Shown: one piece after another, positions 981-60,737 of the stretch
Layout: the number at the start of each line of letters is the position of its first letter
Numbering within the stretch: the first letter of the stretch is position 1
NCBI GenBank assembly: GCA_964600255.1
Contig: CAZRIX010000001.1
Location: 43,948 to 107,947, forward strand
DNA from: an uncultured Candidatus Saccharibacteria bacterium
GTDB taxonomy: Bacteria > Patescibacteriota > Minisyncoccia > Phycocordibacterales > PALSA-1337
DNA: 64,000 bases
Direction of reading: 5' to 3'
Translations under genes and position numbers: made by a program
The notes under the pieces: model-generated
Databases searched by the model: none
The model's input: the letters and a program-made list of their open reading frames with translations, nothing else
What the model was told of the DNA's origin: nothing

Positions 981-1048
981 TTTTTCCAGACTAACAAACA
1001 CACTTATCCCACATTACCTAATTGTCGAATTATTGATATAATAACGAC

Positions 1049-1792
1049 ATGAAAGATCTGATTGTATTTGATTTAGATAACACCCTCGTTCCAAGCAAAA
1101 CTATTATGGACGATGAGATGGTCGGACTATTCACCGAGTTAATCAATAAAAAGAAAGTTGCTGTAATGTCAGGTGGAAGTTTGGAACAATTTAAGAAAGA
1201 ATTTATCAATTCCCTGCCAAGCACGGCGAATCTCTCAAACCTACTACTTTTTCCAACTGACGGGGCTGCTTTCTATAAATGGTCAGACTCAATAAAAGAT
1301 TGGGAGAAAGTATATCAAGAGACTCTGACGGTGGAACAAAAATCTAAAATTATAAGTGCTTTTGATGAAGTACTAAGTAGTATAAATTTTGATAGAGAAA
1401 ACATTAAAGGAAAATTGATCGAGGACAAAGACTCGGCAATGACCTTTTCTGCACTTGGACAAGATGCAGAACTTAAAATCAAAGAAGTTTGGGATCCTGA
1501 ACAGAAGAAAAGAGAGGAAATAAAATCTCTACTAGATCCGATTCTGACTGATTTTGAAGTACGAATAGCTGGAACAACATCAATTGATATAACCAAGAAG
1601 GGTCAGGATAAATCTTTTGGGATGCAAAAAATGATAGAATATACAGGAATCAAGGTAGAAAATATTGTTTATATAGGTGATTCCCTATTTGATGGTGGTA
1701 ACGATAATCCAGTAAAAAGTACTGGTGTAACAACGATCTCAGTTAGAAATCCAGAAGGTACTAAGGTTTTTATTAGACAAATAATTCAATAA
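1049..1792 (+). CDS. HAD-IIB hydrolase, eukaryotic-type phosphomannomutase/phosphoglucomutase-like
   Basis: N-terminal FDLDNTL (DxDxT) motif. C-terminal YIGDSLFDGGNDNPV resembles the PMM GGNDxEIF region. Spacing (SGGSLEQFKKE) matches eukaryotic PMM. ~247 aa. Confidence 0.55.
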   Translation: MKDLIVFDLDNTLVPSKTIMDDEMVGLFTELINKKKVAVMSGGSLEQFKKEFINSLPSTANLSNLLLFPTDGAAFYKWSDSIKDWEKVYQETLTVEQKSKIISAFDEVLSSINFDRENIKGKLIEDKDSAMTFSALGQDAELKIKEVWDPEQKKREEIKSLLDPILTDFEVRIAGTTSIDITKKGQDKSFGMQKMIEYTGIKVENIVYIGDSLFDGGNDNPVKSTGVTTISVRNPEGTKVFIRQIIQ

Positions 1793-1795
1793 TAT

Positions 1796-2344
1796 ATGAT
1801 CAAACCATTCGCTGAACGAGGTCACGAGAAAATGAAAGAGGTGTTAATGAATCCGGAAGCTTCTGGTCCAGCTATACACTACTACATGATCCGTGGTGGA
1901 AGTGACAAGAGAAACATAACTGTATGGGAACCTGGCACTATTGGTGGTGAGTACATCAAAGCTTATGGACATTATCATATTGGTGATCTTGAGGAAGACT
2001 ATACTATTTTAGAAGGTGAAGGAATGATACTACTACAAAGCCCTATCGTAGATGGTAGTGTATCTAGTTTCAAGGCTATCCGCGTTAAAGCTGGTGACAC
2101 AATCCATATTCCAAAGAATACAGGACACCTAGCACTAAATACAGGCAAAACATGGCTTGTGACATCAGACAACAGTCCAGTAAATTTTGAAGAGAAGGAT
2201 CCTGTGAGTTTGCCTGGCCACGCGGATTATGAAGTCGTAAAGAGTATAGGAGGATTTGCATATTTTGTCATAGAGCAAGATGGCAAGCCGGCATTTATAA
2301 AAAATCCGAAGTATAACAAGGTCCCTCCAGTAGAATTAGTGTGA
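1796..2344 (+). CDS. Cupin-type (archaeal-type) glucose-6-phosphate isomerase
   Basis: 182-aa cupin with GHYHIGDLEEDY, giving metal ligands H-x-H plus E. A second His motif lies in IHIPKNTGH. This is the pattern of Pyrococcus/Thermococcus cPGI. Confidence 0.6.
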   Translation: MIKPFAERGHEKMKEVLMNPEASGPAIHYYMIRGGSDKRNITVWEPGTIGGEYIKAYGHYHIGDLEEDYTILEGEGMILLQSPIVDGSVSSFKAIRVKAGDTIHIPKNTGHLALNTGKTWLVTSDNSPVNFEEKDPVSLPGHADYEVVKSIGGFAYFVIEQDGKPAFIKNPKYNKVPPVELV

Positions 2345-2357
2345 TATAATTTAAAAA

Positions 2358-3884
2358 ATGACTGCCAATATTCAACTGATGCGTTTTATTAAAAGACAGA
2401 AAGGATTAAAAATCCTCTTTGTGGCAACAGAAGCAGCTCCTTTTGTAAAAGTTGGAGGTCTAGGTGAAGTATTATTTGCTTTACCAAAAGCTCTAAGAGA
2501 ACTTGGTCATGATGCCCGCGTACTCATACCCAAATATTCTAGTATCCCAGCAGACAAATTCTCATTCAAACCACTCATTGATGGGATCAACATTGAAGGC
2601 AATGTAACAGGTAGACCTATCGTATGCAACGTAAGAGTGCTGGATCAAAAACAAGATGAGCCTATACATAACTATTTCCTAGAAAATCAAGAGTATTTTG
2701 AACAGAGAGGAAGTGTATACGGATACGATGATGATGCTGCTAGATGGGCTGTTATGTGCCGCGGGGCTTTAGAATTCGTCCGCACAGAACAAAATGACTG
2801 GAAGCCAGACTTGATAGTAGCTTCAGATTGGCAAGGTGGACTTATACCCAACTTGATGAAAACTGAGTACAGAGATGATCCTGTAATTTCCAAAATCGCA
2901 GTAGTATTTTCAATACACAATTTACACTACCAGGGAATGTTCGATCATCACCACATTAACGAACTAGACTATGATGATGGTCAGTCTCCTGTTCCTCATG
3001 TCGGTGACCCTAGACTCTTCAAAGCTAACTTTATGCGAAGAGGTATACGTTATGCTGATATAGTAAATACAGTTTCTCCAAACTATGCTCGCGAGATAAC
3101 TACACCGGAGTACGGCGAACTGCTCAACAATATTCTACAGGAACGTCGAGCGAGAGTATTTGGTATTCTAAATGGTATCGATTATACAACCAACGATCCT
3201 ATGTCGAATCCACACGTAGAGTTCAAGTATGATTCAAAATCATTGAAAGAAAGAGAGAAAAATAAACTTTTCCTACAGAGAAAATTCAATCTTGAAGAGA
3301 ATGTAGATATACCAATTTTCGCTATTGTTTCAAGACTTAGTGGACAAAAGGGTCTAGATTTATTGGCCGACACAATAGAACCACTACTGAATAACTACAA
3401 GATGCAACTTATAGTTCTTGGAACTGGAGAATCTAGATACCTTTCATTGTTTGACGATTTGGACAAGAGATATCCGCAGGTTGGAACACATCTTTCATTC
3501 GACCGAGCACTTCCCCACACTATTTATGCAGGCGCAGATGTGATAATGGTACCATCAAAGTTTGAGCCGTCAGGACTAACACAAATGGAAGCTATGAGAT
3601 ACGGTGCATTACCACTCGTTCGCAAAACTGGTGGACTAGCAGACAGTGTTGAAGCGTATTGCCCTATCAACAAAACAGGAACAGGATTCGTATTTGATAA
3701 CTATGACAAGTTTGCATTCTTTGGTGCCGTCGTTCAGGCAATAGAGACTTTCAAACATAAGGACGATTGGTTGGCTATCCAGAAACGCGCTATGGCATCC
3801 AATTTCTCATGGGAGAAGTCAGCAAAGGAATATGTGAATCTATTTAAAAAAGCAATTAATTTTAATAACGAGTATAAAGAATAA
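2358..3884 (+). CDS. glgA: Glycogen/starch synthase (GT5)
   Basis: N-terminal KVGGLGEV motif (KTGGL family). 508 aa. GT-B C-terminal half. Confidence 0.8.
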   Translation: MTANIQLMRFIKRQKGLKILFVATEAAPFVKVGGLGEVLFALPKALRELGHDARVLIPKYSSIPADKFSFKPLIDGINIEGNVTGRPIVCNVRVLDQKQDEPIHNYFLENQEYFEQRGSVYGYDDDAARWAVMCRGALEFVRTEQNDWKPDLIVASDWQGGLIPNLMKTEYRDDPVISKIAVVFSIHNLHYQGMFDHHHINELDYDDGQSPVPHVGDPRLFKANFMRRGIRYADIVNTVSPNYAREITTPEYGELLNNILQERRARVFGILNGIDYTTNDPMSNPHVEFKYDSKSLKEREKNKLFLQRKFNLEENVDIPIFAIVSRLSGQKGLDLLADTIEPLLNNYKMQLIVLGTGESRYLSLFDDLDKRYPQVGTHLSFDRALPHTIYAGADVIMVPSKFEPSGLTQMEAMRYGALPLVRKTGGLADSVEAYCPINKTGTGFVFDNYDKFAFFGAVVQAIETFKHKDDWLAIQKRAMASNFSWEKSAKEYVNLFKKAINFNNEYKE

Positions 3885-3888
3885 ATAA

Positions 3889-5382
3889 ATGTACTGGGCA
3901 AACTTTCTTCACATATATCAGCCAGCAAACCAGAGGAAGGATGTAATAGAAGCTGTTATTGCACAGTGTTACCGTCCACTACTTAAACATATACAAAAAT
4001 CCAAGCATGTAAGACTGACTTTGAATATAAATGCATCACTAGTTGAGCAATTCTACGAACATGGTCATCATGATCTCATCGAAATTCTAAAGGAAGTTGG
4101 ACTCGAAGGTAGAGTCGAGTTTACAAGTTCTGCAAAGTACCACGCATTTCTACCCCTGCTATCTGAAGATGAGATAGTACGTCAGATAAGGATGAATGAT
4201 GAGACAAACAAAAAGTATCTAGGTGACGCCTACAAGCCTGTAGGTTTCTTTTCACCTGAAATGGGATACTCTGAGAAACTACCGGCAATAATAGAAGCCT
4301 TGGGATACAAATGGATGATACTGGATGAAATCTCTGCATTCGGAGAGACTGAAAAGGTTGATCATGCAAAGATCTATAAAATAAAGAATACAAATGTTAA
4401 TGCTTTTTTCAGAGAAAGAAGAATAAGTAACTTAATAATGAGTGCCGTAGTTCGTTCTAGAGAGACACTTATAGAGGCAATGAAAGATGATTTGAAAACA
4501 AATAGGTACTTGATAACAGCGATGGATGGAGAGACATTCGGTCATCACAGGCCTGGCTTGGAGAAAATGCTATTTAAAGTATTTGATACACCAGAGTTCA
4601 ACTTGGTTACAATTTCAGATCTACAAAAACACTATCACGATATTGTAGAAATAGTTCCTGTAAAATCAACATGGGCAAGCAGTAAGCAAGATATTGATAG
4701 AGGTGTTCAGTTTCTATCATGGCATGACCCCTCAAACATCATCCATAGCTGGCAGTGGCAACTTATAAATCTAGTGGGGGCTCAGGTTAAAAAAGTTGAT
4801 ACGAAGGACCCAAAATACGAAGAAATCAGAAAGAAAATGGATCGTGCGCTAGCAAGCGATCATCTATGGTGGGCATCAGCGAAGCCTTGGTGGAGTGTTG
4901 AAATGATAGAGGATGGAGCGTTCAGATTGATAGAGACAATACGACTCATTCCAGGAGTAAGCGATACCGACCTAAGTGCTGCAAGTAAGCTATATGAGAA
5001 TATAGTATCGACCGCTTTTGATTGGCAGCGTTCAGGAAAAATATACCAGATGATGCAAGAACAGAATTCAATACTCAGAATTCCCTTCTTAGAAAGGACA
5101 GTTGGTAAAGGTGGTGCTGAGGTTGGTGTATATCATGCAATTATAAGTCTTATGAAAGGTCTCGAGGAGAAAGCAATAGAAAAGCGTGAATACGAGCAAG
5201 CAATACTTTGGAGAGATGCGATGTACAAACTAGAAAACAAGCTCGATATATACGATACAGTAAACGCAATTGACCTAATGAGAACCCATATTCCGAATGA
5301 TGAAGTTGAGAAGGTTATCGAAATGTACAAGGAAAAGTATAGAGAAATACGAGGTGGTCAAGTTGAACAAAGGGGATCATAA
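3889..5382 (+). CDS. GH57-family glycoside hydrolase (alpha-glucan branching enzyme or amylase type)
   Basis: N-terminal HIYQP motif. Downstream DGETFGHH catalytic region is typical of GH57. Confidence 0.7.
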   Translation: MYWANFLHIYQPANQRKDVIEAVIAQCYRPLLKHIQKSKHVRLTLNINASLVEQFYEHGHHDLIEILKEVGLEGRVEFTSSAKYHAFLPLLSEDEIVRQIRMNDETNKKYLGDAYKPVGFFSPEMGYSEKLPAIIEALGYKWMILDEISAFGETEKVDHAKIYKIKNTNVNAFFRERRISNLIMSAVVRSRETLIEAMKDDLKTNRYLITAMDGETFGHHRPGLEKMLFKVFDTPEFNLVTISDLQKHYHDIVEIVPVKSTWASSKQDIDRGVQFLSWHDPSNIIHSWQWQLINLVGAQVKKVDTKDPKYEEIRKKMDRALASDHLWWASAKPWWSVEMIEDGAFRLIETIRLIPGVSDTDLSAASKLYENIVSTAFDWQRSGKIYQMMQEQNSILRIPFLERTVGKGGAEVGVYHAIISLMKGLEEKAIEKREYEQAILWRDAMYKLENKLDIYDTVNAIDLMRTHIPNDEVEKVIEMYKEKYREIRGGQVEQRGS

Positions 5383-5421
5383 TACAATTATTTAATTTTA
5401 AATAAATTCACTCACAAGCAA

Positions 5422-7038
5422 ATGTGGTTAGACAAATTCAAGAAACCAGAAAACTATAAAGGATTTAGAAAGGAACCAGTAGCGTATTTTTGTGCTGAGT
5501 ATGCCCTCTTTGACCATACACCACTTTATGCAGGTGGACTTGGTATTCTAGCTGGAGACTATGTAAAAGAAATGGTAAAAGAAAACATGCCTGCCGTAGC
5601 GGTAGGCCTTTATTACCACAAAGAACATGAACACGGGCTTGATTTGAATAGAGAAAAAAAGACACCTACAGATCTGGGATTGAACTTAGTGAAAGATTCA
5701 AATGGGAATGTAGTCAAAATACCCATCCTACTCGGTGAAAGAACCGTCTATGTTCAAGTATGGAGCTGGAAAAAGAGTGAGTTGAACCTATACCTTCTGG
5801 ATACTCAAGTCGCTGAAAATAGTCCTATTGATTGGGATATTTGTGACTATCTATACGTGGAAGATAGAAATATCAGACTTAGACAAGAAATTATTCTAGG
5901 TATAGCCGGAGTTAGACTGCTTAAAGTTTTGGATATCAGACCATCAGTTTTTCATATGAATGAAGGTCATTCAGCTTTTCTAGCGTTTGAATTGATACGA
6001 CATGAGATGAAGAGTAGGAATATTGATTTCAAGACTGCGGTAAACTTTGCAAAACAGCGCATTGTTTTTACAAACCATACACTAGTTCCTGCTGGTCACG
6101 AATTGTTCAATATTGACACCATAAAAGATGTGGCGGCTGGATTTGCCAAAGATCTTGGGATTGATATAAACGAACTAGTTCAACTAGGATTCAATAGTGA
6201 GACAAATATGTTCTCTATGACGGAATTGGCTTTGACACTATCTACTAAGGTAAATGCAGTGAGTAAATTACATGCAGTTAAAGCGAAAGAAGTTTGGAAA
6301 TCTCATGAAGTGGAAGTAGTTACTAATGGTATATACGTAGATGATTGGGATCAATTGAAACACTATAGCCACAAGGAACTGAAGAGAAAACTGATAGATC
6401 ATGTTAATACAAATTGCGGAGTAAACTTCAGTGAAGATATATTAACACTTGGTTGGGCTAGGAGATTCGTCGATTACAAGAGACCTTTAGCGATTCTAGG
6501 AGACGTTGAGAGACTAAAGAAACTAGGGAAAGTTCAGATTGTATTTTCTAGTGCAATAAATTCTACATATTCCGAGGAGAATGAATACTATAAAGAACTT
6601 TTAAAGCTAAGCGAAAACGAACTTAAAGGTATGGTAGCTATTATTCCAGACTACGACATACATGTTGCAAAACTGATGACTTCTGGTTGTGACGTATGGC
6701 TCAATACTCCAATAGTTGGCCGCGAAGCTTGTGGTACAAGTGGAATGAAGGCCTGCCTAAATGGTGTACTACCCCTATCAACAAGTGATGGATGGGTTGA
6801 TGAAGTTGATCTAACTGATATTGGTTGGAAGGTAGAGGATGGAGAGATAACAAAAAACCTACTAGATGCATTAGAAAAAGAGGTTATACCTGAGTACTAT
6901 AACAATCAGGAAAGTTGGACAAGGAGAATGCGTAAGTCTAGAGAATTAATCGTGCGTGGCTTTGGAATGAATAGAGCCCTAAAGGAATATATCAACAATA
7001 TATACTTGCCAATATACAATACTAGGAAAAATAACTAG
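5422..7038 (+). CDS. glgP: Alpha-glucan (glycogen/maltodextrin) phosphorylase, GT35
   Basis: FCAEYALFDHTPLYAGGLGILAGD N-terminal signature. EACGTSGMKA pyridoxal-phosphate lysine motif. Confidence 0.8.
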   Translation: MWLDKFKKPENYKGFRKEPVAYFCAEYALFDHTPLYAGGLGILAGDYVKEMVKENMPAVAVGLYYHKEHEHGLDLNREKKTPTDLGLNLVKDSNGNVVKIPILLGERTVYVQVWSWKKSELNLYLLDTQVAENSPIDWDICDYLYVEDRNIRLRQEIILGIAGVRLLKVLDIRPSVFHMNEGHSAFLAFELIRHEMKSRNIDFKTAVNFAKQRIVFTNHTLVPAGHELFNIDTIKDVAAGFAKDLGIDINELVQLGFNSETNMFSMTELALTLSTKVNAVSKLHAVKAKEVWKSHEVEVVTNGIYVDDWDQLKHYSHKELKRKLIDHVNTNCGVNFSEDILTLGWARRFVDYKRPLAILGDVERLKKLGKVQIVFSSAINSTYSEENEYYKELLKLSENELKGMVAIIPDYDIHVAKLMTSGCDVWLNTPIVGREACGTSGMKACLNGVLPLSTSDGWVDEVDLTDIGWKVEDGEITKNLLDALEKEVIPEYYNNQESWTRRMRKSRELIVRGFGMNRALKEYINNIYLPIYNTRKNN

Positions 7039-8012
7039 CGTGAGTCGCCGACTTTGTCGATAAACTGACCTAATAGCTTTTCAGTATTAATCTCCCTCTC
7101 ACCAAAATCAGAACGTAGTATTATTACCGCTATTGGATAGCGTTTGTTACCGATCTTTTTGTCGAAAAGTGTAACCATAGCTTCTTTTGCCTCATTTGTT
7201 CTACCAGTCTTCCCTCCTATAAATTCAGGATATGTTACAAACGGATTGATATTTATCAGACTATTTGATCCATGAGTGGTCGTTGTTGCAATATCAATTT
7301 GCTGAACCCTAGAAATCCTGAGTATATCCGGCTCTGAGCGATATAAGTATTTTGCTAATATAAACAAATCATTTGCATTCGAGATATTTCCAGAACTTAA
7401 TCCTGATGGATCCTTGAATGACGTATTACTCATACCAATTTCCTGAGCGAAAGCATTCATACTTTCGATAAATTTATCGTAACCATATGAGTAAGCAAAG
7501 GCTTCTGCCGCATCATTACTCGAAACTAGAAGCAGACTGTGCAGTAGTTCACCTATATTGTATCTCTCATCAAGTTTAAGTCCCCCAGAATCACCGTAGG
7601 CATCTAGCATTGGTTGGGTTATAGCGATACTAATATTTGGATCGAGAATGTGCTTTACCACAAGAGATGTATACAATTTACTAACTGATGCTATTGGAAA
7701 GACTTTACTTGGATTGTACTGTAGGTATCTCTCACCGGTTTCTAGATTGGCCACAAGGTATGACTCTGCCGTTATATATGGTTTTATTACAATTTTTGCC
7801 GGCTCTTTGATTTCTGTCTTTTTAGCAGTAATAGGCTGCTCATGATCATCTAAAAGAATGCTTGAGTCCAGCCTATTATTTAAAGTGCCGACTGGTCTAT
7901 CCAGCTGCACGGCTCGGTTTAGTTCAGGTAATCGAGAATTGATATCCTTGACCGAAGCGACAATCAATACCAAAACTATACAGAAAATTAAAAGGTATTT
8001 ATTGCTATTCAT
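7035..8012 (-). CDS. D-alanyl-D-alanine carboxypeptidase (S11, PBP5/6-like)
   Basis: Signal anchor. SVSKL (SxxK) motif, SSND (SxN) motif and KTG motif. Confidence 0.7.
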   Translation of the reverse strand: MNSNKYLLIFCIVLVLIVASVKDINSRLPELNRAVQLDRPVGTLNNRLDSSILLDDHEQPITAKKTEIKEPAKIVIKPYITAESYLVANLETGERYLQYNPSKVFPIASVSKLYTSLVVKHILDPNISIAITQPMLDAYGDSGGLKLDERYNIGELLHSLLLVSSNDAAEAFAYSYGYDKFIESMNAFAQEIGMSNTSFKDPSGLSSGNISNANDLFILAKYLYRSEPDILRISRVQQIDIATTTTHGSNSLININPFVTYPEFIGGKTGRTNEAKEAMVTLFDKKIGNKRYPIAVIILRSDFGEREINTEKLLGQFIDKVGDSR

Positions 8013-8052: not shown

Positions 8053-8634
8053 CTACCTTGTAGCTTCGATGTTGGGAGTTATTTCACCCGTAGCACTAAC
8101 TACGATACGTCCGTTGGTATCCTTTGATATCAAATACTTTGTATCATAATCAGTAACTGATGTGAATTTGGCTCCAGTAGCTGTTGGATCAAAAGGTAGG
8201 CTCGATATGTATGTTGGAATCAAACATGAAGCGATATCAACACCCTGAGTCGTATCACTACTTATTACCTTTGGTGTACTTGGTATAACAACGGGACAGT
8301 TGAACACTCCGCGATTCTCGGCCATGTTCTGTCCAACGGCATTTAGGATTGCTGTCACATTACTAACCCTTTGTGAATCGTGTGCTAGCTTGAATTGACG
8401 TGATGGATTGATCGCTACTAGAACTATTGCAGATAGTACGGCAATGATACCTATTACCACCAATATTTCGATCAGAGTAAAACCGGAATTAGTTCTGAGA
8501 CTGCCTGACTTACGCGTCACAACAGGATCTCCAGCCCCAACCTTACTCCTTGCATTACTCACACCACCCCTCATTATTTTAATTTTATTATTCATTGTTT
8601 CTTGTATTATTAATAATATGTAAATCTTACACAA
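8053..8634 (-). CDS. Type IV pilin (prepilin with G/FTLIE processing site)
   Basis: GFTLIEILVVIGIIAVL class III signal with Glu at +5. The leader is long, so the true start may be an internal Met. Confidence 0.7.
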   Translation of the reverse strand: MCKIYILLIIQETMNNKIKIMRGGVSNARSKVGAGDPVVTRKSGSLRTNSGFTLIEILVVIGIIAVLSAIVLVAINPSRQFKLAHDSQRVSNVTAILNAVGQNMAENRGVFNCPVVIPSTPKVISSDTTQGVDIASCLIPTYISSLPFDPTATGAKFTSVTDYDTKYLISKDTNGRIVVSATGEITPNIEATR

Positions 8635-8687
8635 AACTAATTAAGGATCTTTAAATTAAAGATTAAAAAGTTATGAATTTTTTATAA

Positions 8688-9056
8688 CTAATTTACTATT
8701 TCCAAATAGCTATCAAAAAGCCTGACTTGTGAAGTCATCTTTACGTCTATATTCATATAATTCCCAGTCACATCAATAGTTACCACGCCATTTTTCTCAT
8801 CAACGCGATCAATACTACAATCAAAGTCAACCATCTGAGTTGATGTCGATACTCTATAGTAGAAATCATATGACAAGTTCAATATCGCTTGATCTATACA
8901 CGAAAGAGCATTGTAGTGATTCATGAGCCTATATTCCTTTGTCCTAGTTTGATCAAAGAAATGAGCTATTGCTATTGTTTTACTAAAAGACAAAGCCAGA
9001 AGTAGACCAGTTACAGTAATTACCAGTGTTATAGATATGAATCCTTTATTATTCAT
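8688..9056 (-). CDS. Small membrane-anchored protein. Possible degenerate pseudopilin.
   Basis: N-terminal KGFISITLVITVTGLLLALSF hydrophobic segment with no Glu at +5. Sits between prepilin genes in the same strand run. Confidence 0.35.
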   Translation of the reverse strand: MNNKGFISITLVITVTGLLLALSFSKTIAIAHFFDQTRTKEYRLMNHYNALSCIDQAILNLSYDFYYRVSTSTQMVDFDCSIDRVDEKNGVVTIDVTGNYMNIDVKMTSQVRLFDSYLEIVN

Positions 9057-9216
9057 GATAGTTTTTTATTAATTTTTCATAGTCAGCATCTGTAAAGTCT
9101 GAATGATTGGTTCCTGACCTAACATAGCTGAGAACAAGTGAAAACACTCCAGTCATGAGCACTGACACCAGAGAGATATAGACTATGAGTTCAAGTATAG
9201 AAAAGCCTTTTTTCAT
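9053..9216 (-). CDS. Small prepilin-like protein (~54 aa), absent from the ORF track
   Basis: Reverse-complement reading gives MKKGFSILELIVYISLVSVLMTGVFSLVLSYVRSG... with a G/FSILE class III signal. Its stop overlaps the start of the next gene. Confidence 0.5.
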
Positions 9217-9217
9217 A

Positions 9218-10534
9218 TTATTTTAAATCGATCATTAAGAAACCTTTCATATCTCCAGTAGCAAAATATAATCTTGAATTGTCACACGTCATTTTTACAA
9301 CCGATCCAACTAGCGGATAGCTTTGTTTCAGATTTAATAGACTAGGATCATACACTTGTAGTTCCTTACCAGTTGCATGAGTTAATAAAAGCAAATCACT
9401 TGGAGTCTGTATAATCCCATACACACCACCAGGAATATCTTTTGAGATAGTCGAGGTACCGAATACAAATACTTCGTGGTTACTTGTAACGTTAAAGCCA
9501 CCGACCGTTCTACCCAACATCAATCTATCCTCAAACATATTGATTGTTTTACCCTCCTGAGTCTGCCATCCGCTCGATGTAAATGAGTCTATTAGTCTAG
9601 GCTGTGATTTATCTTTTACATCAAGTACTCTCATCTGCATTTCGTCTGATGTAGCCAAATAGACCTTATCACCGGTGGCGTATATATCATTTACCAAGGT
9701 ACCAGTCTCATAGCTTCCAACCACAAATGGAAACTTTTTATCCGAGACATTTATAATATTTAACTCTGGACCATTCCATTTTGTCGTACCGAGATATATA
9801 TGGTTTCTATAATAGAAAATTGACGTAGCGATAGGTGGCGTGGTGGTTGGTGTTGGTAAAGGTAATCTCAACTGAGATATAAGTTTTGGATTGGTACGGT
9901 CGCTAATATCAACTATCTGCAACTGATTGGCTGTACTCGCCTGCGCAACAAACATATACGGTCCAGCAACTTCAAGTGACTTTATACCTGGACCAGTATG
10001 CAGTGACGACAGTATTCTTGGTATGTCCGCATCTGAATTATCAACTATATACAAATCCGGCAGGGATACATTACTTGAATCAGTTGATAGATATACGACA
10101 TCGTTTCTTGCCTCTATGTCTGAACTATAGTTACCCACTCCCGTATTTATACCAGTTGTGTATTCCCTTAACTGGCTGGGGTCGAAACTGAGTCTGGGAT
10201 AGCAAGCACCTCTTCCCCATGCATCAGTGTAGTTTGAGTGTGCAAGAGTAAAGATCTCATTAGAATATCTCATAGTACTATTACCATACATTGTTGAACT
10301 GGCGTATATACCGCGATCAAAGTCACGGACTAATAACTCCATTCGGTCTAACTCATTTAATGACCAAATCTTTAACCTTTGCATAGATAGATCAAGACTA
10401 AATATTGATATGGTAAAAATGGTAAAGATTGAAAATGCCAACATTACTTCAACAATCATAAACCCGCGATTTCTTATCTTCATTTTACTTCCACTTACTT
10501 TCACATTATTTTGATAGATGGTTTGAGATCTCAT
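9218..10534 (-). CDS. Large prepilin-like protein (minor pilin or tip adhesin candidate). N-terminal class III signal, repeat-rich extracellular domain.
   Basis: MKIRNRGFMIVEVMLAFSIF prepilin signal. The start is more likely the internal Met at ~10483. ~420-aa beta-rich body. Confidence 0.55.
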   Translation of the reverse strand: MRSQTIYQNNVKVSGSKMKIRNRGFMIVEVMLAFSIFTIFTISIFSLDLSMQRLKIWSLNELDRMELLVRDFDRGIYASSTMYGNSTMRYSNEIFTLAHSNYTDAWGRGACYPRLSFDPSQLREYTTGINTGVGNYSSDIEARNDVVYLSTDSSNVSLPDLYIVDNSDADIPRILSSLHTGPGIKSLEVAGPYMFVAQASTANQLQIVDISDRTNPKLISQLRLPLPTPTTTPPIATSIFYYRNHIYLGTTKWNGPELNIINVSDKKFPFVVGSYETGTLVNDIYATGDKVYLATSDEMQMRVLDVKDKSQPRLIDSFTSSGWQTQEGKTINMFEDRLMLGRTVGGFNVTSNHEVFVFGTSTISKDIPGGVYGIIQTPSDLLLLTHATGKELQVYDPSLLNLKQSYPLVGSVVKMTCDNSRLYFATGDMKGFLMIDLK

Positions 10535-11582
10535 ATACAGGCAAAATTATTGATAGAGCAATAGATCCAACCACTAAGCCCATAAAAACCATTAGCACCG
10601 GCTCTATAAGTGAAGTAAAACTCTTTAATACATTCTCTATTTCTTGTTCAAATATCCTAGCCGTATGTCCGAAAAGCGCACCGAGGTTGCCTGTCTTTTC
10701 CCCAATACTAACCATATCAATCATCAAGCTTGGTATATACAATTTAGATCTATCCAAAGATATTGATAGTGCAATACCATTCAAAGATTCTGCATAAACT
10801 CTATTGAATGTATTCTTCAATACTGAGTTTGAATTTGAATCCCGAGCAAATACAAGAAGCTCCTGAATGCCTCTGCCGGAGTTAAGTAGCATTTCTCCCA
10901 TACTGCATATCGGTATCATCATATTTATTTTTGTATATTTATGAACTATGGGTATAGACAGGATAAGTAGATCGAACTTGTATTTAACCGTGGTGGATTT
11001 TAGGATAAGAATTCGAAGTAGTACACCTAGGACCAAGCCTGAAACAAGTGCATATATTCCAAACTCAGTCATGAGATAGTAGATCTCCTGCACTATTCTA
11101 GTCATGAGTGGTAGCTCAATATCTAGACTAGATAATAGAGGAACTATTTTAGGAAAAATATAAAGGATTAGAAAAAGCGACATAAAGATAGTGGCGATAA
11201 ATATAAATATTGGATACACCAATGCACTAACTATCTTCTTTTTTAACTCACTCTTTTTATAAAGATAGTTGTATGCCTGCAACAGTGAATCTGAAAGAGT
11301 TCCATTCTGCTCTCCGTTTTCTATGAGTATTAGCAGTAAACTATTGAATCTTAAGTTCTGGTTCCTTATAGATTTACTCAGACTTAATCCATGTTGAATA
11401 CTATTCACTATCTCTCCTAGCATATTTTTCTTACCTATAGAATTTTCTATCTTGCGGATCATCTCTAACCCATCGACAAGTGATATTCCGGAATTTAGTA
11501 ATATAGACAATCTCTGTGCAAAGTGTATTTGATCTGCCAGACTAAAAATCCTACTATTCATGTAATGTTCGATTGACTTCAT
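10506..11582 (-). CDS. pilC: Type IV pilus/T2SS platform protein (GspF/PilC family)
   Basis: Two T2SSF-like repeats with polytopic TM topology. Lies directly downstream of the PilB ATPase. Confidence 0.75.
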   Translation of the reverse strand: MKSIEHYMNSRIFSLADQIHFAQRLSILLNSGISLVDGLEMIRKIENSIGKKNMLGEIVNSIQHGLSLSKSIRNQNLRFNSLLLILIENGEQNGTLSDSLLQAYNYLYKKSELKKKIVSALVYPIFIFIATIFMSLFLILYIFPKIVPLLSSLDIELPLMTRIVQEIYYLMTEFGIYALVSGLVLGVLLRILILKSTTVKYKFDLLILSIPIVHKYTKINMMIPICSMGEMLLNSGRGIQELLVFARDSNSNSVLKNTFNRVYAESLNGIALSISLDRSKLYIPSLMIDMVSIGEKTGNLGALFGHTARIFEQEIENVLKSFTSLIEPVLMVFMGLVVGSIALSIILPVYEISNHLSK

Positions 11583-12690
11583 TTTCAGTTGTTATTCCAT
11601 TTTCTACTTTTATCATTGCGTCCTCATACATTGTCTTCATACCTTTGGAACGGGCATAAAGGGTAATATCTGCCATAGATGTTCGAGTCATTATGTATTT
11701 TCTCATTTCATCATCAACCATGAGTGTTTCTGCAACGACGGTTCGACCTTTATATCCAGACCCATCACATACCAAACATCCGCAACCAGCCCCGAAACAC
11801 ACCCTGCAAGTCTTTCTCACTAGTCTCTGGGCAATAACTAGTGAAAGAGTCGATGCTACTAGATACGGATCTATACCCATATCTACAAGCCTAGGAATTG
11901 CTCCTAGGGCCGAGTTTGTATGCAAAGTGGATAGAAGCAAATGACCAGTCAAAGAAACGTTTGTGGCAATGACAGCAGTCTCTTTGTCACGTATCTCACC
12001 TACCATTATGATATCTGGATCCTGTCTAACGATGGATCTCAATCCATTTGCAAAAGTAATACCGTGTTTTGAGTTTATTTGTATCTGCCTTACATCTGGG
12101 ATTGCGTATTCTATTGGATCCTCTAGTGTGATTATTGAGTTCTTGTTGGTAGCAAGTGATGCAATGAGTGTATACAGGGTCGAAGTCTTTCCGGACCCGG
12201 TTGGACCTGTTACCAATATCATTCCCTGATGCAATGACAGACTTGTAAGTATTCTATCTACATCTAGCTCAGAAAATCCGAGACTGCCTAGTGTAGGAAT
12301 TTCTTTGTCATTCTTTAATATTCTAAGTACAGCATTCTCTCCGTAGTGTGTCGGTATGATCGAAACTCTCACGTCACAGTTAAATGATAATTGAGCAAAC
12401 TTAAATCTTCCATCTTGTGGTACAAAATGTATATCTGTTCGTAATCCAGACACTACTTTTATCCTAGCTATTACTTCTTCATGGGTATCGTGCAAAAGTG
12501 TATCTATCACCGTCAAAACCCCATCTATCCTAAACTTAACAACTGTACCGTTTGGTGATGGGTCTATGTGTATGTCGGATGCATTTCTATACAAAGCAAA
12601 GGTAACTATAGAGTCTACCAGCTCTACAACAGAAACGATGTCATGCAACATTTTTTCGTTATTAATAATTTTATATATCTTTTCTTGCAT
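11554..12690 (-). CDS. pilB: Type IV pilus assembly ATPase (GspE/PilB family), short form lacking the N-terminal domain
   Basis: Walker A GPTGSGKTST. Asp and His boxes. C-terminal tetracysteine CRVCFGAGCGCLVC. Confidence 0.8.
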   Translation of the reverse strand: MQEKIYKIINNEKMLHDIVSVVELVDSIVTFALYRNASDIHIDPSPNGTVVKFRIDGVLTVIDTLLHDTHEEVIARIKVVSGLRTDIHFVPQDGRFKFAQLSFNCDVRVSIIPTHYGENAVLRILKNDKEIPTLGSLGFSELDVDRILTSLSLHQGMILVTGPTGSGKTSTLYTLIASLATNKNSIITLEDPIEYAIPDVRQIQINSKHGITFANGLRSIVRQDPDIIMVGEIRDKETAVIATNVSLTGHLLLSTLHTNSALGAIPRLVDMGIDPYLVASTLSLVIAQRLVRKTCRVCFGAGCGCLVCDGSGYKGRTVVAETLMVDDEMRKYIMTRTSMADITLYARSKGMKTMYEDAMIKVENGITTENEVNRTLHE

Positions 12691-15960: not shown

Positions 15961-16082
15961 TTGACTTTTCATATAAAATGTGCTAATATATTAGGAGAAG
16001 TTAGAGAAAACTGAGTACTCTGCCGTGCTTTGCACGGAGTGGAGGAAAAAGTGATCTTTGACAATTTAACAGGAGATAGTGT
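15961..16082 (+). promoter_or_regulatory. Consensus-like sigma70 promoter (TTGACT-17-TAATAT) plus conserved structured leader, copy A
   Basis: TTGACT at 15961-15966, 17-nt spacer, TAATAT at 15984-15989. The leader has a CCGTGC/GCACGG hairpin and GGAGG tracts. Copy B at 17070 is near-identical. Confidence 0.6.
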
Positions 16083-16970
16083 ATGGACATTAGTTTTAAC
16101 AAGGAAACCAACGTTTTGAGATGGACCCCAGTTCTATTAACAGATCGATATGTAGTGAAGATGGAAGGTGGAACTGCTCCAGATGACTGGACTAATGAGT
16201 ACTCAGTCCCTGAAACAGTAACCGGCATTAAACTAGTTGAATCGGCGTACTGGGGCAACATCAAGGAAACTGGTGCGAAGATAACCATCACTGCGCTCGA
16301 TGATAGTAGGAGCACTCTGGATACTGTCGACATCAACATTACCATCCCGAAGCAGAAGTGGCACCAGGGAGCGGCCGTGAGGCTGTTCATGCTACTGGCG
16401 GTCCTACTCGGCGCTTGGGCGTCATACTCACAGTACAAATTGGGTAAGGCCAATGACGTTATGGCTGAGCGGGATGAAGCAAAAACACTTCTTGCTGCTC
16501 AGGTGACACTGACAGCAGACTGGAAGAAGGCACACGACAAAGCTACCAACCAGCCAGTTGTAACATTGTACGAAACCAATGTGGTAACGGTGCCTGTGTA
16601 CGAGAAGATCAAAGTCTACGACATCCCGCAAGGGATGCCGAAGGCTGGACCAGCGACGAATGATACGTTGGTCCATTACTTCTCGCCTACCAACCAGCAC
16701 ACGGTGACGAAGTTCATCACCGATGGAGATGGGACTATGTTCCTCACTCCAAACGACTGGCAGATCAACTGCCTGGTCTACGGTAACGTGGCCGATTTCG
16801 ATCGGCTCGTGAACATCGGGGGACTTACCAACCCCCACTGGATCCATTACGGACCAGGAACAAAACTTCCAGAGGCGACCAAGGTGGTCGCATATTGGAT
16901 TAGAAACCGAGTGCAGAACTCCCACCTCAAGGTGGAGTTCGTGCTCACACCCGTCGCCTCTACTCCATAG
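16083..16970 (+). CDS. Hypothetical membrane protein (single central TM) in the high-GC island
   Basis: 295-aa ORF with RBS AGGAGA. GC ~50%. Central hydrophobic helix AAVRLFMLLAVLLGAWASY. No recognisable motif. Confidence 0.5.
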   Translation: MDISFNKETNVLRWTPVLLTDRYVVKMEGGTAPDDWTNEYSVPETVTGIKLVESAYWGNIKETGAKITITALDDSRSTLDTVDINITIPKQKWHQGAAVRLFMLLAVLLGAWASYSQYKLGKANDVMAERDEAKTLLAAQVTLTADWKKAHDKATNQPVVTLYETNVVTVPVYEKIKVYDIPQGMPKAGPATNDTLVHYFSPTNQHTVTKFITDGDGTMFLTPNDWQINCLVYGNVADFDRLVNIGGLTNPHWIHYGPGTKLPEATKVVAYWIRNRVQNSHLKVEFVLTPVASTP

Positions 16971-16990
16971 CAAAGCGCGACCGGCAAAGG

Positions 16991-17025
16991 GAGCCTGGGA
17001 TTTTATTCCAGGCTCTTTTCTTTTG
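16991..17025 (+). terminator. Intrinsic terminator
   Basis: GAGCCTGG-N9-CCAGGCTC perfect 8-bp stem followed by TTTTCTTTT. Confidence 0.65.
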
Positions 17026-17069
17026 TGTGTTTACTAAATAATTTAAAGATTTTTAAAGCATAATTACCA

Positions 17070-17182
17070 TTGACTTTTCATTTAAAATGTGCTAATATAT
17101 TAGGAGAGTTAGAAGGCCAAGTACTCTGACACGCTGTAGCGTGGAGGGAGGAAAGGAAGAACTTTGACAACAAGGATAATTC
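17070..17182 (+). promoter_or_regulatory. Consensus-like sigma70 promoter plus conserved structured leader, copy B
   Basis: TTGACT at 17070-17075, 17-nt spacer, TAATAT at 17093-17098. The hairpin ACGC/GCGT sits where copy A has CCGTGC/GCACGG, which is a compensatory change. Confidence 0.6.
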
Positions 17183-18112
17183 GTGAAAAAACTATCATAC
17201 GAGTCGCAATTTTGGAGATTAGTCGTCTCCATCATGTCACTGCCCATAACGATGTACGTCATCTACAAGGTCGTATACACGGTTGTTGTATTCATGCGAT
17301 TCGATCCATCGGTGGCCGAGAAGTTAGCGAACTGGGTAGGCCTACCGGCCTCCTGGTATATCTACTTCAAGTTCCTACTCGAACGGTTCTGGATTGATGT
17401 AGCACTTGAAGACGTGGTCCTAGAAGATTCCTTCAGTTTCCGGAACAGGAAGGTCGGTGATCAAGCAGACCCATTGGCTTTGCCGAGTGGTCTGAGGTCA
17501 GTTGGTGGACCAGGGTTCAGAGCGAAGGGTTTCTTTGAGACCGTCAAGACGAGATTACCTGTAGTATCTAAAGAGAAGAATGGTGGCCTCGAAGTCGACG
17601 ACAAGCAAACGAACACCTTCAACGTCAGTTACTCCATGACATTTACTAGGGTCAGGGGTAAATTCTCTGTGATTGGTTCAACCTACAAAGAGGAAGAGGC
17701 AGTTAAAACCCTCGAAGCCATCGTTGAGGCGCGAATTGAGGAATTATTCGCAAACGAGCAGGATGGTAGGAATATCCGGGCTTCACTTGATAAACGTAAC
17801 GAGGATCTCTCTAAGGTCCTCGGCGGCGATCGAGATATCAGCACCGAAGAGATTCGTTGTGGGTTCTTCATAACAAAACTTCGAATCAAGACGGTTGATG
17901 AGGCTGCAGCAACAAAACAGCGTAACCAGACCCAAGCGCTGGCAACAGCTGTGAATTCTGCAGCAGATGCTCTATCAAAGGGTATCGGGGCTGGAGCAGA
18001 TCCAAACCTTATTATGGCCCTTGCTGCAAGTGCAGCTGGGGTTAAGGGTGACGGAGTTAAAGTGAGTATAGTCAAGGGTCTCGAGAAAGGCGGCACATAC
18101 AACGTAAGTTAA
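17183..18112 (+). CDS. Membrane protein with weak SPFH/band-7-like features (GTG start)
   Basis: N-terminal TM helices. Central region and Ala/Gln-rich C-terminal helix loosely resemble stomatin/HflKC organisation. Unknown function. Confidence 0.4.
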   Translation: MKKLSYESQFWRLVVSIMSLPITMYVIYKVVYTVVVFMRFDPSVAEKLANWVGLPASWYIYFKFLLERFWIDVALEDVVLEDSFSFRNRKVGDQADPLALPSGLRSVGGPGFRAKGFFETVKTRLPVVSKEKNGGLEVDDKQTNTFNVSYSMTFTRVRGKFSVIGSTYKEEEAVKTLEAIVEARIEELFANEQDGRNIRASLDKRNEDLSKVLGGDRDISTEEIRCGFFITKLRIKTVDEAAATKQRNQTQALATAVNSAADALSKGIGAGADPNLIMALAASAAGVKGDGVKVSIVKGLEKGGTYNVS

Positions 18113-18113
18113 C

Positions 18114-18554
18114 ATGAACACCACACTTCTCAAAAAACTGGCGTGGTATGGGCCAATCGCGGCGATACTAATCGCTACGATGTTCTACATCCGATCCTAC
18201 AACGGGTCAGAAAAGAAGGTACAGCACGTCCCTGTCACTGGCGGTGGTAAGGCTTCGGCAACCACCACAATCACGATCATCAAGGGGGCAACTCCTAGGA
18301 TGATCGATTACCCACATTTCTCCCGGTTCAGATCGGGAATTGTGGAAGATGACGTTGCGTACGTCATACACATCAATCTCGTCGGTCGGCCTGACCATGA
18401 GATTGAAAAAATATTCGTACCTGCCAGAAACGACAGACCGAGCAATTGGTCTGATCCGCTCGCAGGCAAGAATATTGCGAGGATCGGGTTTACGCTCGAT
18501 CCTTCCTCGGCCAAGGATATTGGCCACATCGAGTACGTAGTCGAGAGGCAGTAG
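18114..18554 (+). CDS. Hypothetical membrane-anchored protein, probably co-transcribed with 17183..18112
   Basis: ORF begins 2 nt after the upstream stop. N-terminal TM. High GC. Confidence 0.45.
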   Translation: MNTTLLKKLAWYGPIAAILIATMFYIRSYNGSEKKVQHVPVTGGGKASATTTITIIKGATPRMIDYPHFSRFRSGIVEDDVAYVIHINLVGRPDHEIEKIFVPARNDRPSNWSDPLAGKNIARIGFTLDPSSAKDIGHIEYVVERQ

Positions 18555-20846: not shown

Positions 20847-21298
20847 TTTGATGGTGTATTAATAAATGTACCGATCACAGTTTTATTCTTCTCTGTCACG
20901 AACCAGTTGACTACCGTGATAACTGAAATCCATGCTACAAGCATTATTATAAACCCCTTAGCCACTGATGGGAAGATCTTCTTTGCTGTACTTATATTAC
21001 CAGAAGTACCTGTCATATACAGAAGTCCTGCATAGGCCATAAGCACAGTGACTATTGGCACGGTTATGAAGAACAGCCAATTTATCGTTGATTTCACCAT
21101 ATTCATTAGTGCATTGAAATCACAAACTTGTTGTCTGTCTTTCTCTAATGGATTACCATTTATATCTTTAGCCACAACACCATCACACTTCACCAACCCG
21201 CTATAATCTAGCTTTACCGGCTGTGCATTCTGCGCAAAAGAAAATACTGGGACAATAAGAGATAAAAATATTGTAAGTGTTATTAGATATTTTTTCAT
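20843..21298 (-). CDS. VirB2/TrbC-like two-TM pilin-family protein, paralog 6
   Basis: Signal peptide ending SFAQN. TM. TGTSGNISTAKKIFPSVAKGFIIMLVAW loop and TM. Confidence 0.5.
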   Translation of the reverse strand: MKKYLITLTIFLSLIVPVFSFAQNAQPVKLDYSGLVKCDGVVAKDINGNPLEKDRQQVCDFNALMNMVKSTINWLFFITVPIVTVLMAYAGLLYMTGTSGNISTAKKIFPSVAKGFIIMLVAWISVITVVNWFVTEKNKTVIGTFINTPSK

Positions 21299-23108: not shown

Positions 23109-23293
23109 GCAATTATTATAACATAGGAAATAAAAAACAAGAGCGATTTAAGATATTGTATGCAAAAGAGAATGAAATATACGCCTCAGGACACGCACTA
23201 TCGCCTACTGGCGATGTACTAGTTCTCGACGTCTCCACGTCTCCGAAATGTCCTTCGTCATACATTTCATTCTCTCTTCTTTTTTACCAACAA

Positions 23294-26637: not shown

Positions 26638-27357
26638 CTACTCATTTACAGAATCCAAAAGCACAATATCACCTTCTTTTCCTTCTAGATCCTTTTTCTT
26701 TAGAGTAAGCTTTGGCTCAGACTTTGGATTCTCCCCTGCTTCTTTTAGGAAAACCTTCAGAGCGTCTTTTTCTCCAATATCACCAAAATGCATTGGGATT
26801 ATAATCTTTGGTTCAAGTGATACGGCTAGCTTGTAAGCCTTTGCAGGATCGAGCACACCATCTCCACCAATTGGAACGAATAGAATATCGATCTCGTCTA
26901 GAGCCTCGACAGTTTCATTCTTTAGCTCAGCGCTATTGTTTGCACCCAAGAAACAAATGTTCATATTCTCAAGAGATACTGTATATATAGTATTTACCAA
27001 ATCTTTGCCACCGTATTTAGACTCTGAAGGAAGGCCTTTGATGAAAACTTCCTTTACCTCATATTCACCGGGACCTGATATTACGAAAGGTTTCTTTTCT
27101 CCGTGAGTCACCTGATCTACTCCATTGAAGTCCTCATGATATGTACTTGTAAGAACAATGTCGGCTCCGAAGCGACTAGACTTTAACTTTGACTCTTTAG
27201 AAATAGGATTAAAAGCAAGCGTTGTATCGCCAAACTGTACCTTAAAAAATTCACCTCCGTAATATGTAATAATCATAGTGAGTGCATTATAACAGAAAGA
27301 TATGATATCGTTAATACATGCAAGAAAATATCTGGGAAAAGGAATATCGCGATCCAA
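26638..27357 (-). CDS. MBL-fold metal-dependent hydrolase (UPF0173-like)
   Basis: ILFVPIGGDG...IIIPMHFGD pattern typical of the metallo-beta-lactamase superfamily. Confidence 0.55.
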   Translation of the reverse strand: MDRDIPFPRYFLACINDIISFCYNALTMIITYYGGEFFKVQFGDTTLAFNPISKESKLKSSRFGADIVLTSTYHEDFNGVDQVTHGEKKPFVISGPGEYEVKEVFIKGLPSESKYGGKDLVNTIYTVSLENMNICFLGANNSAELKNETVEALDEIDILFVPIGGDGVLDPAKAYKLAVSLEPKIIIPMHFGDIGEKDALKVFLKEAGENPKSEPKLTLKKKDLEGKEGDIVLLDSVNE

Positions 27358-60657: not shown

Positions 60658-60737
60658 AATAAAATTTCAAGCGAATTATTAATAATCGAATATCACTTAT
60701 TATATCAAACAAAAAACCTCCTGTTAAGGAAGTTTTT

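Follow-up and report, generated by a model that had tools for sequence, protein, structure and literature searches.

The 64-kb stretch of DNA analysed here, the whole of which is referred to as the window, has a GC content of ~38% and encodes a class A RNase P RNA (60737-61097), which identifies it as bacterial. Between 1049 and 7038 it carries a cluster of five open reading frames (ORFs) predicted to encode enzymes of alpha-glucan and hexose phosphate metabolism. All five are on the + strand, span exactly this interval and are separated in the ORF listing by 3, 13, 4 and 39 nt. This matched a preliminary description made from the sequence alone, which had reported five co-directional, tightly packed genes; its five family assignments also held, as every protein scored above the curated cut-off of the profile concerned. 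The predicted genes were as follows:

1049..1792, + strand: PgmH-type HAD-IIB hexose-phosphate mutase, predicted alpha-phosphoglucomutase (alpha-PGM) interconverting glucose-1-phosphate (G1P) and glucose-6-phosphate (G6P); 247 aa; TIGR01484, PF03332 and 4BND matches
1796..2344, + strand: cupin-type phosphoglucose isomerase (PGI; cPGI for the cupin type), predicted to interconvert G6P and fructose-6-phosphate (F6P); 182 aa; PF06560, fold match, invariant metal ligands
2358..3884, + strand: GT5 glycogen/starch synthase GlgA; 508 aa; TIGR02095, PF08323
3889..5382, + strand: GH57 enzyme, predicted to be active on alpha-glucans, of a CPR-wide subfamily (CPR, Candidate Phyla Radiation); candidate branching/remodelling enzyme; 497 aa; PF03065
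5422..7038, + strand: alpha-glucan phosphorylase (GlgP) of the TIGR02094 clade, predicted to convert glycogen or maltodextrin and phosphate (Pi) to alpha-G1P; 538 aa

The named homologs of the cluster proteins all came from metagenome-assembled genomes of Patescibacteria/CPR. For comparison, a set of 80 species-level CPR loci around cupin homologs was used, each of ≤~20.6 kb and with up to 10 kb on either side of the cupin gene. The identical five-gene order was found in relatives at ~92% identity, and the cupin gene adjoined GlgA-GH57-GlgP in 27 of the 80 loci. At least three arrangements were present among these 27: all genes in one direction, as in the window; the cupin gene facing a convergent PgmH::GlgP-GlgA-GH57 set; and PgmH on the opposite strand. 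The order kept at ~92% identity, together with the adjacency of GlgA, GH57 and GlgP in the 27 loci, places the grouping of these genes beyond chance. The comparisons described below directly established the protein families, the conservation of both catalytic residues and synteny, and the domain fusions. On this basis the five genes probably form an operon-like CPR cluster that links an alpha-glucan store to glycolysis, using enzyme families that are non-canonical but known.

The predicted HAD-IIB mutase and fusions of its family

Searches with the two Pfam profiles that the preliminary description had named for the first two proteins were both positive: PF03332, the phosphomannomutase (PMM) family, gave 38.1 bits with the 247 aa protein (cut-off 22.4) and PF06560, the cupin glucose-6-phosphate isomerase family, gave 71.9 bits with the 182 aa protein (cut-off 20.7). 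The 247 aa protein also scored 87 bits with TIGR01484 (HAD-IIB). Its top match among PDB sequences by far was 4BND (E 5.8e-44, 153.6 bits, residues 1-246 aligned; 36.5% global identity over 244 aa), which was deposited as an alpha-phosphoglucomutase and which is PgmH/APGM of Lactococcus lactis. The best match to a PMM (6i5x, 54.1 bits) was ~100 bits below this, and human PMM2 gave ~33-45 bits. In the accounts given in PMC8576529 and PMC9537760 of the work of Neves et al. (2006, J Biol Chem 281:36864), the L. lactis alpha-PGM is encoded by pgmH and is unrelated to the alpha-D-phosphohexomutases.

The protein contains the motifs FDLDNT (aa 7-12) and GDSLFDGGND (aa 210-219). An alignment of 28 sequences, comprising the window protein, 4BND and unfused and fused forms, showed residues D8, D10, T12, S41, G42, K188, D211, N218 and D219, which make up HAD motifs I-IV, to be invariant. 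The window protein and 4BND also have cap-region motifs in common, ALGQ and WDPx3KR; the GQ (ALGQDA and AIGQKA, respectively) is replaced by GR in 6i5x in an alignment with this one PMM. The preliminary description had called the protein a eukaryotic-type PMM. The FDLDNT...GGND motifs on which this was based were confirmed and the PF03332 score was above its cut-off, but the eukaryotic attribution amounts to a Pfam label, and by sequence the nearest characterised relative is the bacterial PgmH-type alpha-PGM and not a eukaryotic PMM. The window protein and L. lactis PgmH are both members of the HAD-IIB fold family, which has eukaryotic PMMs as relatives; they align over the full length and have in common the motifs DxDxT, SG, K and GDx4GGND as well as those of the cap. 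The window protein differs in that its gene sits in a putative glycogen operon and its activity is predicted from sequence, and in that members of its clade are sometimes fused to GlgP, to mannose-6-phosphate isomerase (PMI) cupins or to other domains, whereas the 4BND chain is a single domain of 253 aa. This clade is large and mostly CPR/metagenomic: an exhaustive search of the representative library found 2125 members at E<=1e-3, and 405 when the threshold was set at E<=1e-30.

In 11 of the 27 cluster-bearing loci (L013-L018, L022, L023, L030, L060 and L079) a PgmH-like domain and GlgP were encoded by one ORF of 740-803 aa, such as the 773 aa ORF at L016:13598-15919 (- strand). Residues ~1-250 of these ORFs had 30-41% identity with the HAD protein of the window, and the remainder had 32-37% with its GlgP; NCBIfam likewise recognised TIGR01484 followed by TIGR02094. 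Two proteins of the representative library, P0434 and P0443, also had the HAD-then-GlgP order. A third, P0509 (760 aa), had the reverse order of phosphorylase then HAD, which suggests that the two orders arose by independent fusion events. The fusions argue strongly for G1P as the substrate of the predicted mutase in the glycogen context. Further members of the HAD clade were fused to a cytidylyltransferase-like domain (P0401), a histidine-phosphatase (dPGM-like) domain (P0371) and an FAD-linked oxidase (P0407), and Gmad2-domain fusion was found in the group made up of P0469, P0423, P0401, P0371, P0407 and P0508.

An alternative is that the HAD-IIB protein is a PMM, interconverting mannose-1-phosphate and mannose-6-phosphate, or a sugar-phosphate phosphatase, for example one releasing glucose from G1P or G6P, with the conversion of G1P to G6P left to a canonical PGM encoded elsewhere. 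Several results weigh in this direction and against the mutase assignment. PF03332 was above its cut-off, yet the generic phosphatase family PF08282 scored slightly higher (42.9 against 38.1 bits), and the NCBIfam label stopped at the subfamily, "HAD-IIB family hydrolase". Many homologs are named "phosphomannomutase" in JGI, and two members of the clade (P0469 and P0423) were fused to PF01050 cupins of the mannose-6-phosphate isomerase type; the wider clade is thus not uniformly glucose-specific, and some of its members probably act on mannose phosphates or are otherwise specialised. In two loci (L054 and L069), moreover, there was no HAD gene and an alpha-D-phosphohexomutase gene lay directly 5′ of the cupin gene. 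Set against this, the best characterised relative is an alpha-phosphoglucomutase that leads the PMMs by the margin given above, the GQ of the cap is common to the window protein and 4BND and not to 6i5x, GlgP fusions in both orders indicate G1P, and the cluster holds no mannose-related gene. A phosphatase, for its part, would lose the phosphate ester gained by phosphorolysis and starve a co-transcribed PGI of its substrate. We therefore regard a PMM or phosphatase as unlikely and continue to treat the protein as a predicted alpha-PGM.

The predicted cupin isomerase and its genomic neighbours

The preliminary description had allowed for the 182 aa protein belonging to a cupin family other than PGI; the profile search placed it in the PGI cupin family, and PF06560 was also the precomputed assignment of all 120 listed homologs. 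When the protein was compared with PDB sequences, solved cPGIs were the only significant matches (E 2e-9 to 4e-5). In P. furiosus PGI (PfPGI), the Mn/Fe ligands are His88, His90, Glu97 and His136, and His158 and Tyr152 are implicated in proton transfer and substrate contact (PMC6627849). The window protein contains GHYH (aa 58-61), E67 and H111. These were examined by aligning PfPGI with 81 sequences from the CPR, the PfPGI numbering being checked against the published residues. The residues corresponding to the four ligands (H59, H61, E67 and H111, respectively) were invariant in all 81 CPR sequences, as were H142 (His158), Y145 (the Tyr160 equivalent), T42, G58, Y69, N115 and D144. A Foldseek search with an AlphaFold (AF2) model of the protein, which had a predicted local distance difference test (pLDDT) score of 74, returned cPGIs of P. 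furiosus and T. litoralis at all of ranks 1-12 (E 5e-12 to 2e-10, template modelling (TM) score ~0.6); other cupins, with the same model, had E >=3e-6 and TM ~0.4. The Pyrococcus-type HxH...E cupin site of the preliminary description is thus present, with invariant metal ligands and with cPGIs as the closest folds, and on sequence and model the 182 aa protein is a predicted cupin-type PGI. The family comprised 2855 clusters at 90% identity and had 418 matches in GTDB species genomes.

In common with the P. furiosus/T. litoralis enzymes (1X82, 1X7N, 1J3P), the window cupin has the PF06560 domain, the His-His-Glu-His site, the His158 and Tyr160 equivalents and a predicted cupin barrel. It differs from them in having one residue fewer between HxH and Glu, an 8-residue insertion before PGHADY, Asp/Asn at the position of Tyr152 and a mesophilic, low-GC bacterium as its host. 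Cupin-type enzymes of the bacteria Salmonella and Ensifer were reportedly described by Hansen et al. in 2005. Among cultured prokaryotes the cPGI is described as mainly an enzyme of archaea that has seldom been transferred to bacteria (PMC12525153). For the CPR, Jaffe et al. 2020 (PMC7304191) describe cupin PGIs that are placed as siblings of the archaeal clade and are one of three alternative PGI forms in the radiation. The window protein belongs to the same Pfam family and the same radiation as these. In the passages covered here the treatment is of presence and absence only, and the PgmH-GlgA-GH57-GlgP context, the context with G6P dehydrogenase (G6PD), 6-phosphogluconate dehydrogenase (6PGD) and a ROK kinase, and the PgmH-GlgP fusion are not mentioned. 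The word archaeal, which the preliminary description attached to this isomerase, needs refining: the closest solved enzymes are those of Pyrococcus and Thermococcus, and the clade is very widespread in the CPR, where it has been reported previously (PMC7304191).

The genes beside the cupin gene were of two main kinds. One was the glycogen cluster. In the other, G6PD (PF00479 and PF02781) was encoded within 6 kb of the cupin in 21 of the 80 loci and within 500 bp in 16, mostly divergently, and was accompanied by 6PGD in 19 loci and a ROK kinase in 18. This type occurred in Daviesbacteria-like genomes without glycogen genes (L019, L020, L025, L029, L035, L038, L043, L044, L046, L052, L057, L070 and others), most of which had the cupin gene at about position 10001 of the locus, and it constitutes an oxidative pentose-phosphate/G6P cluster. 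Many TPA_asm records with this CPR-type cupin and its neighbours (L019, L025, L029, L035, L038 and others) bear the title "uncultured Gammaproteobacteria" or "Candidatus Saccharibacteria", and doubt is cast on these names by the Daviesbacteria/Paceibacterota labels of near-identical gene arrangements. Additionally, a small PF01050-type cupin was encoded upstream of the cPGI in 9 of the 80 loci, and in 7 of these the two genes either abut or share 2-4 nt. The loci with such a cupin (~143 aa) directly 5′ of the cPGI were L032, L036, L045, L055, L071, L072 and L080, and a homolog was found at L082:1803-2234. This arrangement suggests a PMI-PGI pair. An alpha-D-phosphohexomutase adjoined the cupin in 3 loci. 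Judged from the predicted functions, the metabolite common to the two independent contexts is G6P, and neighbours that all share G6P are to be expected around a PGI gene.

The cupin could instead be a diverged PF06560-like protein with another role, such as the isomerisation or epimerisation of a different sugar phosphate, or regulation through binding of a metal or sugar, with a canonical PGI or PGI/PMI encoded elsewhere. The following points count towards this and against a PGI. Identity to the archaeal, solved cPGIs was only ~25-30% (best E 2e-9), the protein is ~30 residues shorter at the N-terminus and no NCBIfam model matched it. At the position of the proton-transfer residue Tyr152 the CPR cupins had Asp (73 sequences), Asn (7) or Lys (1); this position is in the loop with the insertion, where model confidence was low, the model being poor at residues 132-141 as well as at residues 9-27. 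Finally, Jaffe et al. 2020 (PMC7304191) report that ~2% of CPR genomes encode PGIs of more than one type and that the cupin is the sole form in only ~15 genomes. The remaining evidence points the other way: the four metal ligands and the His158 and Tyr160 equivalents did not vary among the 81 sequences, the closest folds were exclusively cPGIs, and across lineages the neighbouring genes make or use G6P (GlgP and mutase, G6PD, ROK kinase, phosphohexomutase). The separate PMI-like cupin upstream in 9 loci argues that the 182 aa protein is not itself a PMI. A function other than PGI thus appears quite unlikely, and the protein is taken below as a predicted cPGI.

Proposed synthesis and breakdown of the glucan

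GlgA scored 494.4 bits with TIGR02095 (cut-off 328.45) and 234 bits with PF08323, matched E. coli GlgA (2qzs) with E 2e-78 and contained KVGGL (aa 31-35) and EPSGLTQ (aa 403-409). It was below every NCBIfam equivalog cut-off, so its donor specificity (ADP- or UDP-glucose) is not fixed by these models; either nucleotide sugar is a possible donor for GT5 enzymes (PMC11046441). The phosphorylase belonged to the short clade TIGR02094 (455.2 bits, cut-off 191.7), matched the alpha-glucan family phosphorylase 9l6i in the PDB with E 6.3e-69 and scored 370 bits, under the cut-off, with the maltodextrin phosphorylase model NF041129. Its GTSGMK (aa 438-443) presumably occupies the position of the pyridoxal phosphate-lysine motif of GT35.

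The GH57 protein scored 115.3 bits with PF03065 (cut-off 21.2). It represents a uniform subfamily of 497 aa with >=62% identity among the listed homologs, which are mostly labelled "hypothetical protein". Residues E124 and D213 were invariant in 23 sequences; E124 (PEMG) aligned to WLPECAY of TK1436 and is a candidate nucleophile, and D213 (DGETFGHH) is, going by the conserved regions of GH57, the candidate acid/base Asp. For comparison with solved GH57 enzymes we used the branching enzymes TK1436 (3N8T), that of P. horikoshii (5WU7) and that of T. thermophilus (3P0B), the T. litoralis 4-alpha-glucanotransferase (1K1W), two amylopullulanases (7E1Y, 9K7C) and AmyC (2B5D). Shared with these are the (beta/alpha)7 domain followed by a helical C-terminal domain, and the candidate nucleophile Glu and acid/base Asp; the differences are an identity of 12-19% with no preferred specificity class and a first conserved region that reads HIYQP in the window protein.

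Attempts to assign a specificity to the GH57 protein by PDB sequence search, NCBIfam and structure prediction with Foldseek gave no discrimination, and this counts against the proposed pathway. Matches to PDB sequences reached ~26 bits only. The branching-enzyme equivalogs NF041133 and NF041566 gave 27.9 and 28.0 bits, below their cut-offs of 1000 and 920. With a model of pLDDT 79, Foldseek placed 4-alpha-glucanotransferase, amylopullulanase, AmyC and branching enzymes about equal (TM 0.5-0.58, 12-19% identity). The sole argument for branching is position: the GH57 gene was directly behind GlgA in 27 of 27 loci, which makes the protein a candidate branching/remodelling enzyme.

Among the closest known systems are the classical glgBXCAP cluster of the E. 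coli type and the GlgC-GlgA pathway (PMC11046441). Like glgBXCAP, the window cluster combines genes for a GT5 GlgA and an alpha-glucan phosphorylase, and its proposed function is likewise the synthesis and phosphorolysis of an alpha-1,4/1,6-glucan. Unlike glgBXCAP, the window cluster is without GlgC, GH13 GlgB and GlgX, has a GH57 protein in GlgB's place and a short TIGR02094 phosphorylase, and adds predicted PGM and PGI steps by way of non-canonical families. No GlgC, GH13 GlgB or GlgX was found anywhere in the 64-kb window, the cluster included, and neither these families nor any pyrophosphorylase family recurred as neighbours of the cluster among the 27 related loci. Profiles run on the large ORFs, together with a motif scan, likewise detected no glgC, GalU, PF00342 PGI or alpha-D-phosphohexomutase in the window. 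The absence of an adjacent glgC, stated in the preliminary description, accordingly extends to the large ORFs of the window. Two points tell against the proposed link: without GlgC, the source of the glucosyl donor for GlgA is unaccounted for within the window, and a canonical PGI or PGM may coexist beyond it.

The only nucleotidyltransferase in the window was the following, 31 kb from the cluster:

37940-38662, - strand: stand-alone GlmU N-terminal uridyltransferase domain (GlmU-N); 240 aa, without the acetyltransferase domain; TIGR01173 184 bits, positions 2-226 of 452

It was considered as the missing GlgC and set aside, as it was neither GlgC nor GalU by any curated model and is a speculative source of UDP-sugar only. 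It was 43% identical to the product of a gene in L054 (L054:3621-4367), which has a counterpart in L069 (L069:6552-7298). In these two loci the gene row was Ddl, GlmU-N, phosphohexomutase, cPGI, GlgA, GH57 and GlgP, with the HAD gene missing. Replacement of PgmH in place by a canonical PGM is no more than hinted at here, since the phosphohexomutase scored similarly as PgmG (367 bits) and archaeal GlmM (335 bits) and is preceded by Ddl and GlmU-N. The trio of Ddl, GlmU-N and phosphohexomutase may be a cell-wall precursor cluster and was for that reason not counted as evidence.

It has also to be considered that the cluster consumes exogenous alpha-glucans or maltodextrins of a host or community, or builds a surface alpha-glucan, with the GH57 protein acting as an amylase, amylopullulanase or 4-alpha-glucanotransferase. 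TIGR02094 includes maltodextrin phosphorylases, as the sub-threshold NF041129 score recalls, the GH57 fold was slightly nearer to 4-alpha-glucanotransferase and amylopullulanase and had only 28 bits on the branching-enzyme equivalogs, and no GlgC was found in the window. GH57 in surveys of Patescibacteria is usually taken to indicate amylose degradation (PMC9868632), and the window contains a gene for an extracellular solute-binding protein (21295-22587). Against external glucans, GlgA was always present and followed directly by GH57, as expected of a synthase and branching-enzyme pair; no N-terminal hydrophobic segment resembling a signal peptide was seen in GlgA, GH57 or GlgP, whose translations were inspected by eye only; and the PEMGY of the window protein, which is like conserved region 3, resembles WLPECAY of the TK1436 branching enzyme. 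We consider use of exogenous glucan, or a surface glucan, somewhat unlikely and favour turnover of an internal alpha-glucan store. The preliminary description had spoken of a glycogen utilisation module, a term that undersells the synthesis half, as GlgA and GH57 were always adjacent.

Transcription, flanking genes and the proposed pathway

Two promoter-like elements were found at the cluster:

1034..1042, + strand: extended -10 promoter-like element TGATATAAT, ending 6 nt before the PgmH ATG
2342..2350, + strand: second, identical copy of TGATATAAT, overlapping the cPGI stop codon and ending 7 nt before the GlgA ATG

The motif TGNTATAAT had 10 matches in the window, where 5.2 were expected by chance, and five of the 10 ended 6-7 nt before a start codon (1034-1042, 2342-2350, 23115-23123 (-), 27286-27294 (-) and 50603-50611). 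The match at 27286-27294 would place the true start of the ORF listed at 26638-27357 near 27279. No Shine-Dalgarno-like sequence was present upstream of any of the five genes. Because the -10 elements lie 6-7 nt before the starts and Shine-Dalgarno-like sequences are lacking, the sequence suggests leaderless transcripts, possibly forming two units, PgmH-cPGI and GlgA-GH57-GlgP, with a possible internal promoter at 2342-2350 for the second. Other genes of this genome may often be transcribed without leaders as well. A generic promoter/terminator scan was not above background, and internal terminator-like sites were not in excess in the cluster.

The cluster is flanked by the following ORFs:

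39-980, + strand: histidine kinase, upstream of the cluster
7035-8012, - strand: D-Ala-D-Ala carboxypeptidase, convergent, downstream of the cluster

The histidine kinase was considered as a member of the module and left out, because none but the closest relatives, 8 of 80 loci, have kept it. Directly downstream of the glycogen cluster is a type IV pilus/type II secretion-like set (8053-12690, - strand; pilin-like N_methyl proteins, T2SSF and T2SSE, by homology to annotated relatives), with synteny held in the closest relatives. The solute-binding protein gene at 21295-22587 (- strand; PF01547) had no NCBIfam match and no permease genes were recognised alongside it; it could be part of a sugar/oligosaccharide uptake system. 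A GC-rich stretch (16001-18554; 0.48 compared with ~0.38) contains three ORFs without a Pfam match (16083-16970, 17183-18112 and 18114-18554), overlapped by antisense ORFs, and is possibly foreign or non-coding DNA. The largest ORF of the window by far encodes 2026 aa (42103-48183, - strand).

From the comparisons above we infer the catalytic activities, substrate specificities, direction of flux and transcription units of the following pathway. In breakdown, GlgP would phosphorolyse the alpha-1,4-glucan to alpha-glucose-1-phosphate without ATP, the PgmH-type mutase would convert G1P to G6P via an aspartyl-phosphate/glucose-1,6-bisphosphate cycle, and the metal-dependent cupin PGI would convert G6P to F6P. 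This chain from glycogen through G1P and G6P to F6P had been put forward in the preliminary description and gains support from the 4BND match, the PgmH-GlgP fusions, the invariant cPGI residues and the two contexts that share G6P. In synthesis, PGI and mutase operating in reverse would supply G1P, GlgA would lengthen alpha-1,4 chains from nucleoside diphosphate (NDP)-glucose and the adjacent GH57 enzyme would branch or remodel the polymer; the NDP-glucose pyrophosphorylase step is not encoded in the cluster.

A broader proposal, which we put forward only tentatively and as a whole, is that across much of the CPR the sole entry of hexose into glycolysis is a kinase-free, ATP-free phosphorolytic shunt. 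It would depend on two non-canonical enzymes mislabelled by standard pipelines, one appearing as "phosphomannomutase / HAD hydrolase" and the other as "cupin / hypothetical", so that upper glycolysis would be systematically under-called. In some lineages PgmH and GlgP would have been fused, at least twice, allowing the conversion of glycogen and Pi to G6P on one polypeptide; GlgA, in genomes without GlgC, might use UDP-glucose made by a GlmU-N-type enzyme or NDP-glucose scavenged from a host; and the 497 aa GH57 protein would represent a new CPR subfamily of branching enzymes.

In the literature covered, the coverage of which was incomplete, no description was found of a PgmH-type mutase in the CPR, of the five-gene operon or of PgmH-GlgP fusions; glycogen/starch genes of the CPR are mentioned there only in passing (PMC5220378; PMC9868632). 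What is new here is some comparative evidence; the chemistry is not new, and CPR cupin PGIs have already been published. The value of the finding lies in improved annotation and testable enzymology and not in a new principle or a new kind of system. The PgmH-GlgP fusions provide an experimental handle, as one protein could be assayed for the conversion of glycogen and Pi to G6P, and genomic grounds for assigning a function to a HAD clade whose annotation is poor. A large part of bacterial diversity belongs to the CPR, whose metabolism has been read almost entirely from annotated genomes. Should the proposed pathway be correct, many CPR genomes that are scored as being without PGM or PGI would hold a complete link from alpha-glucan to glycolysis and the pentose-phosphate pathway, and would gain phosphorylated hexose without ATP, which would suit organisms that have very little energy to spend and mostly lack a hexokinase.

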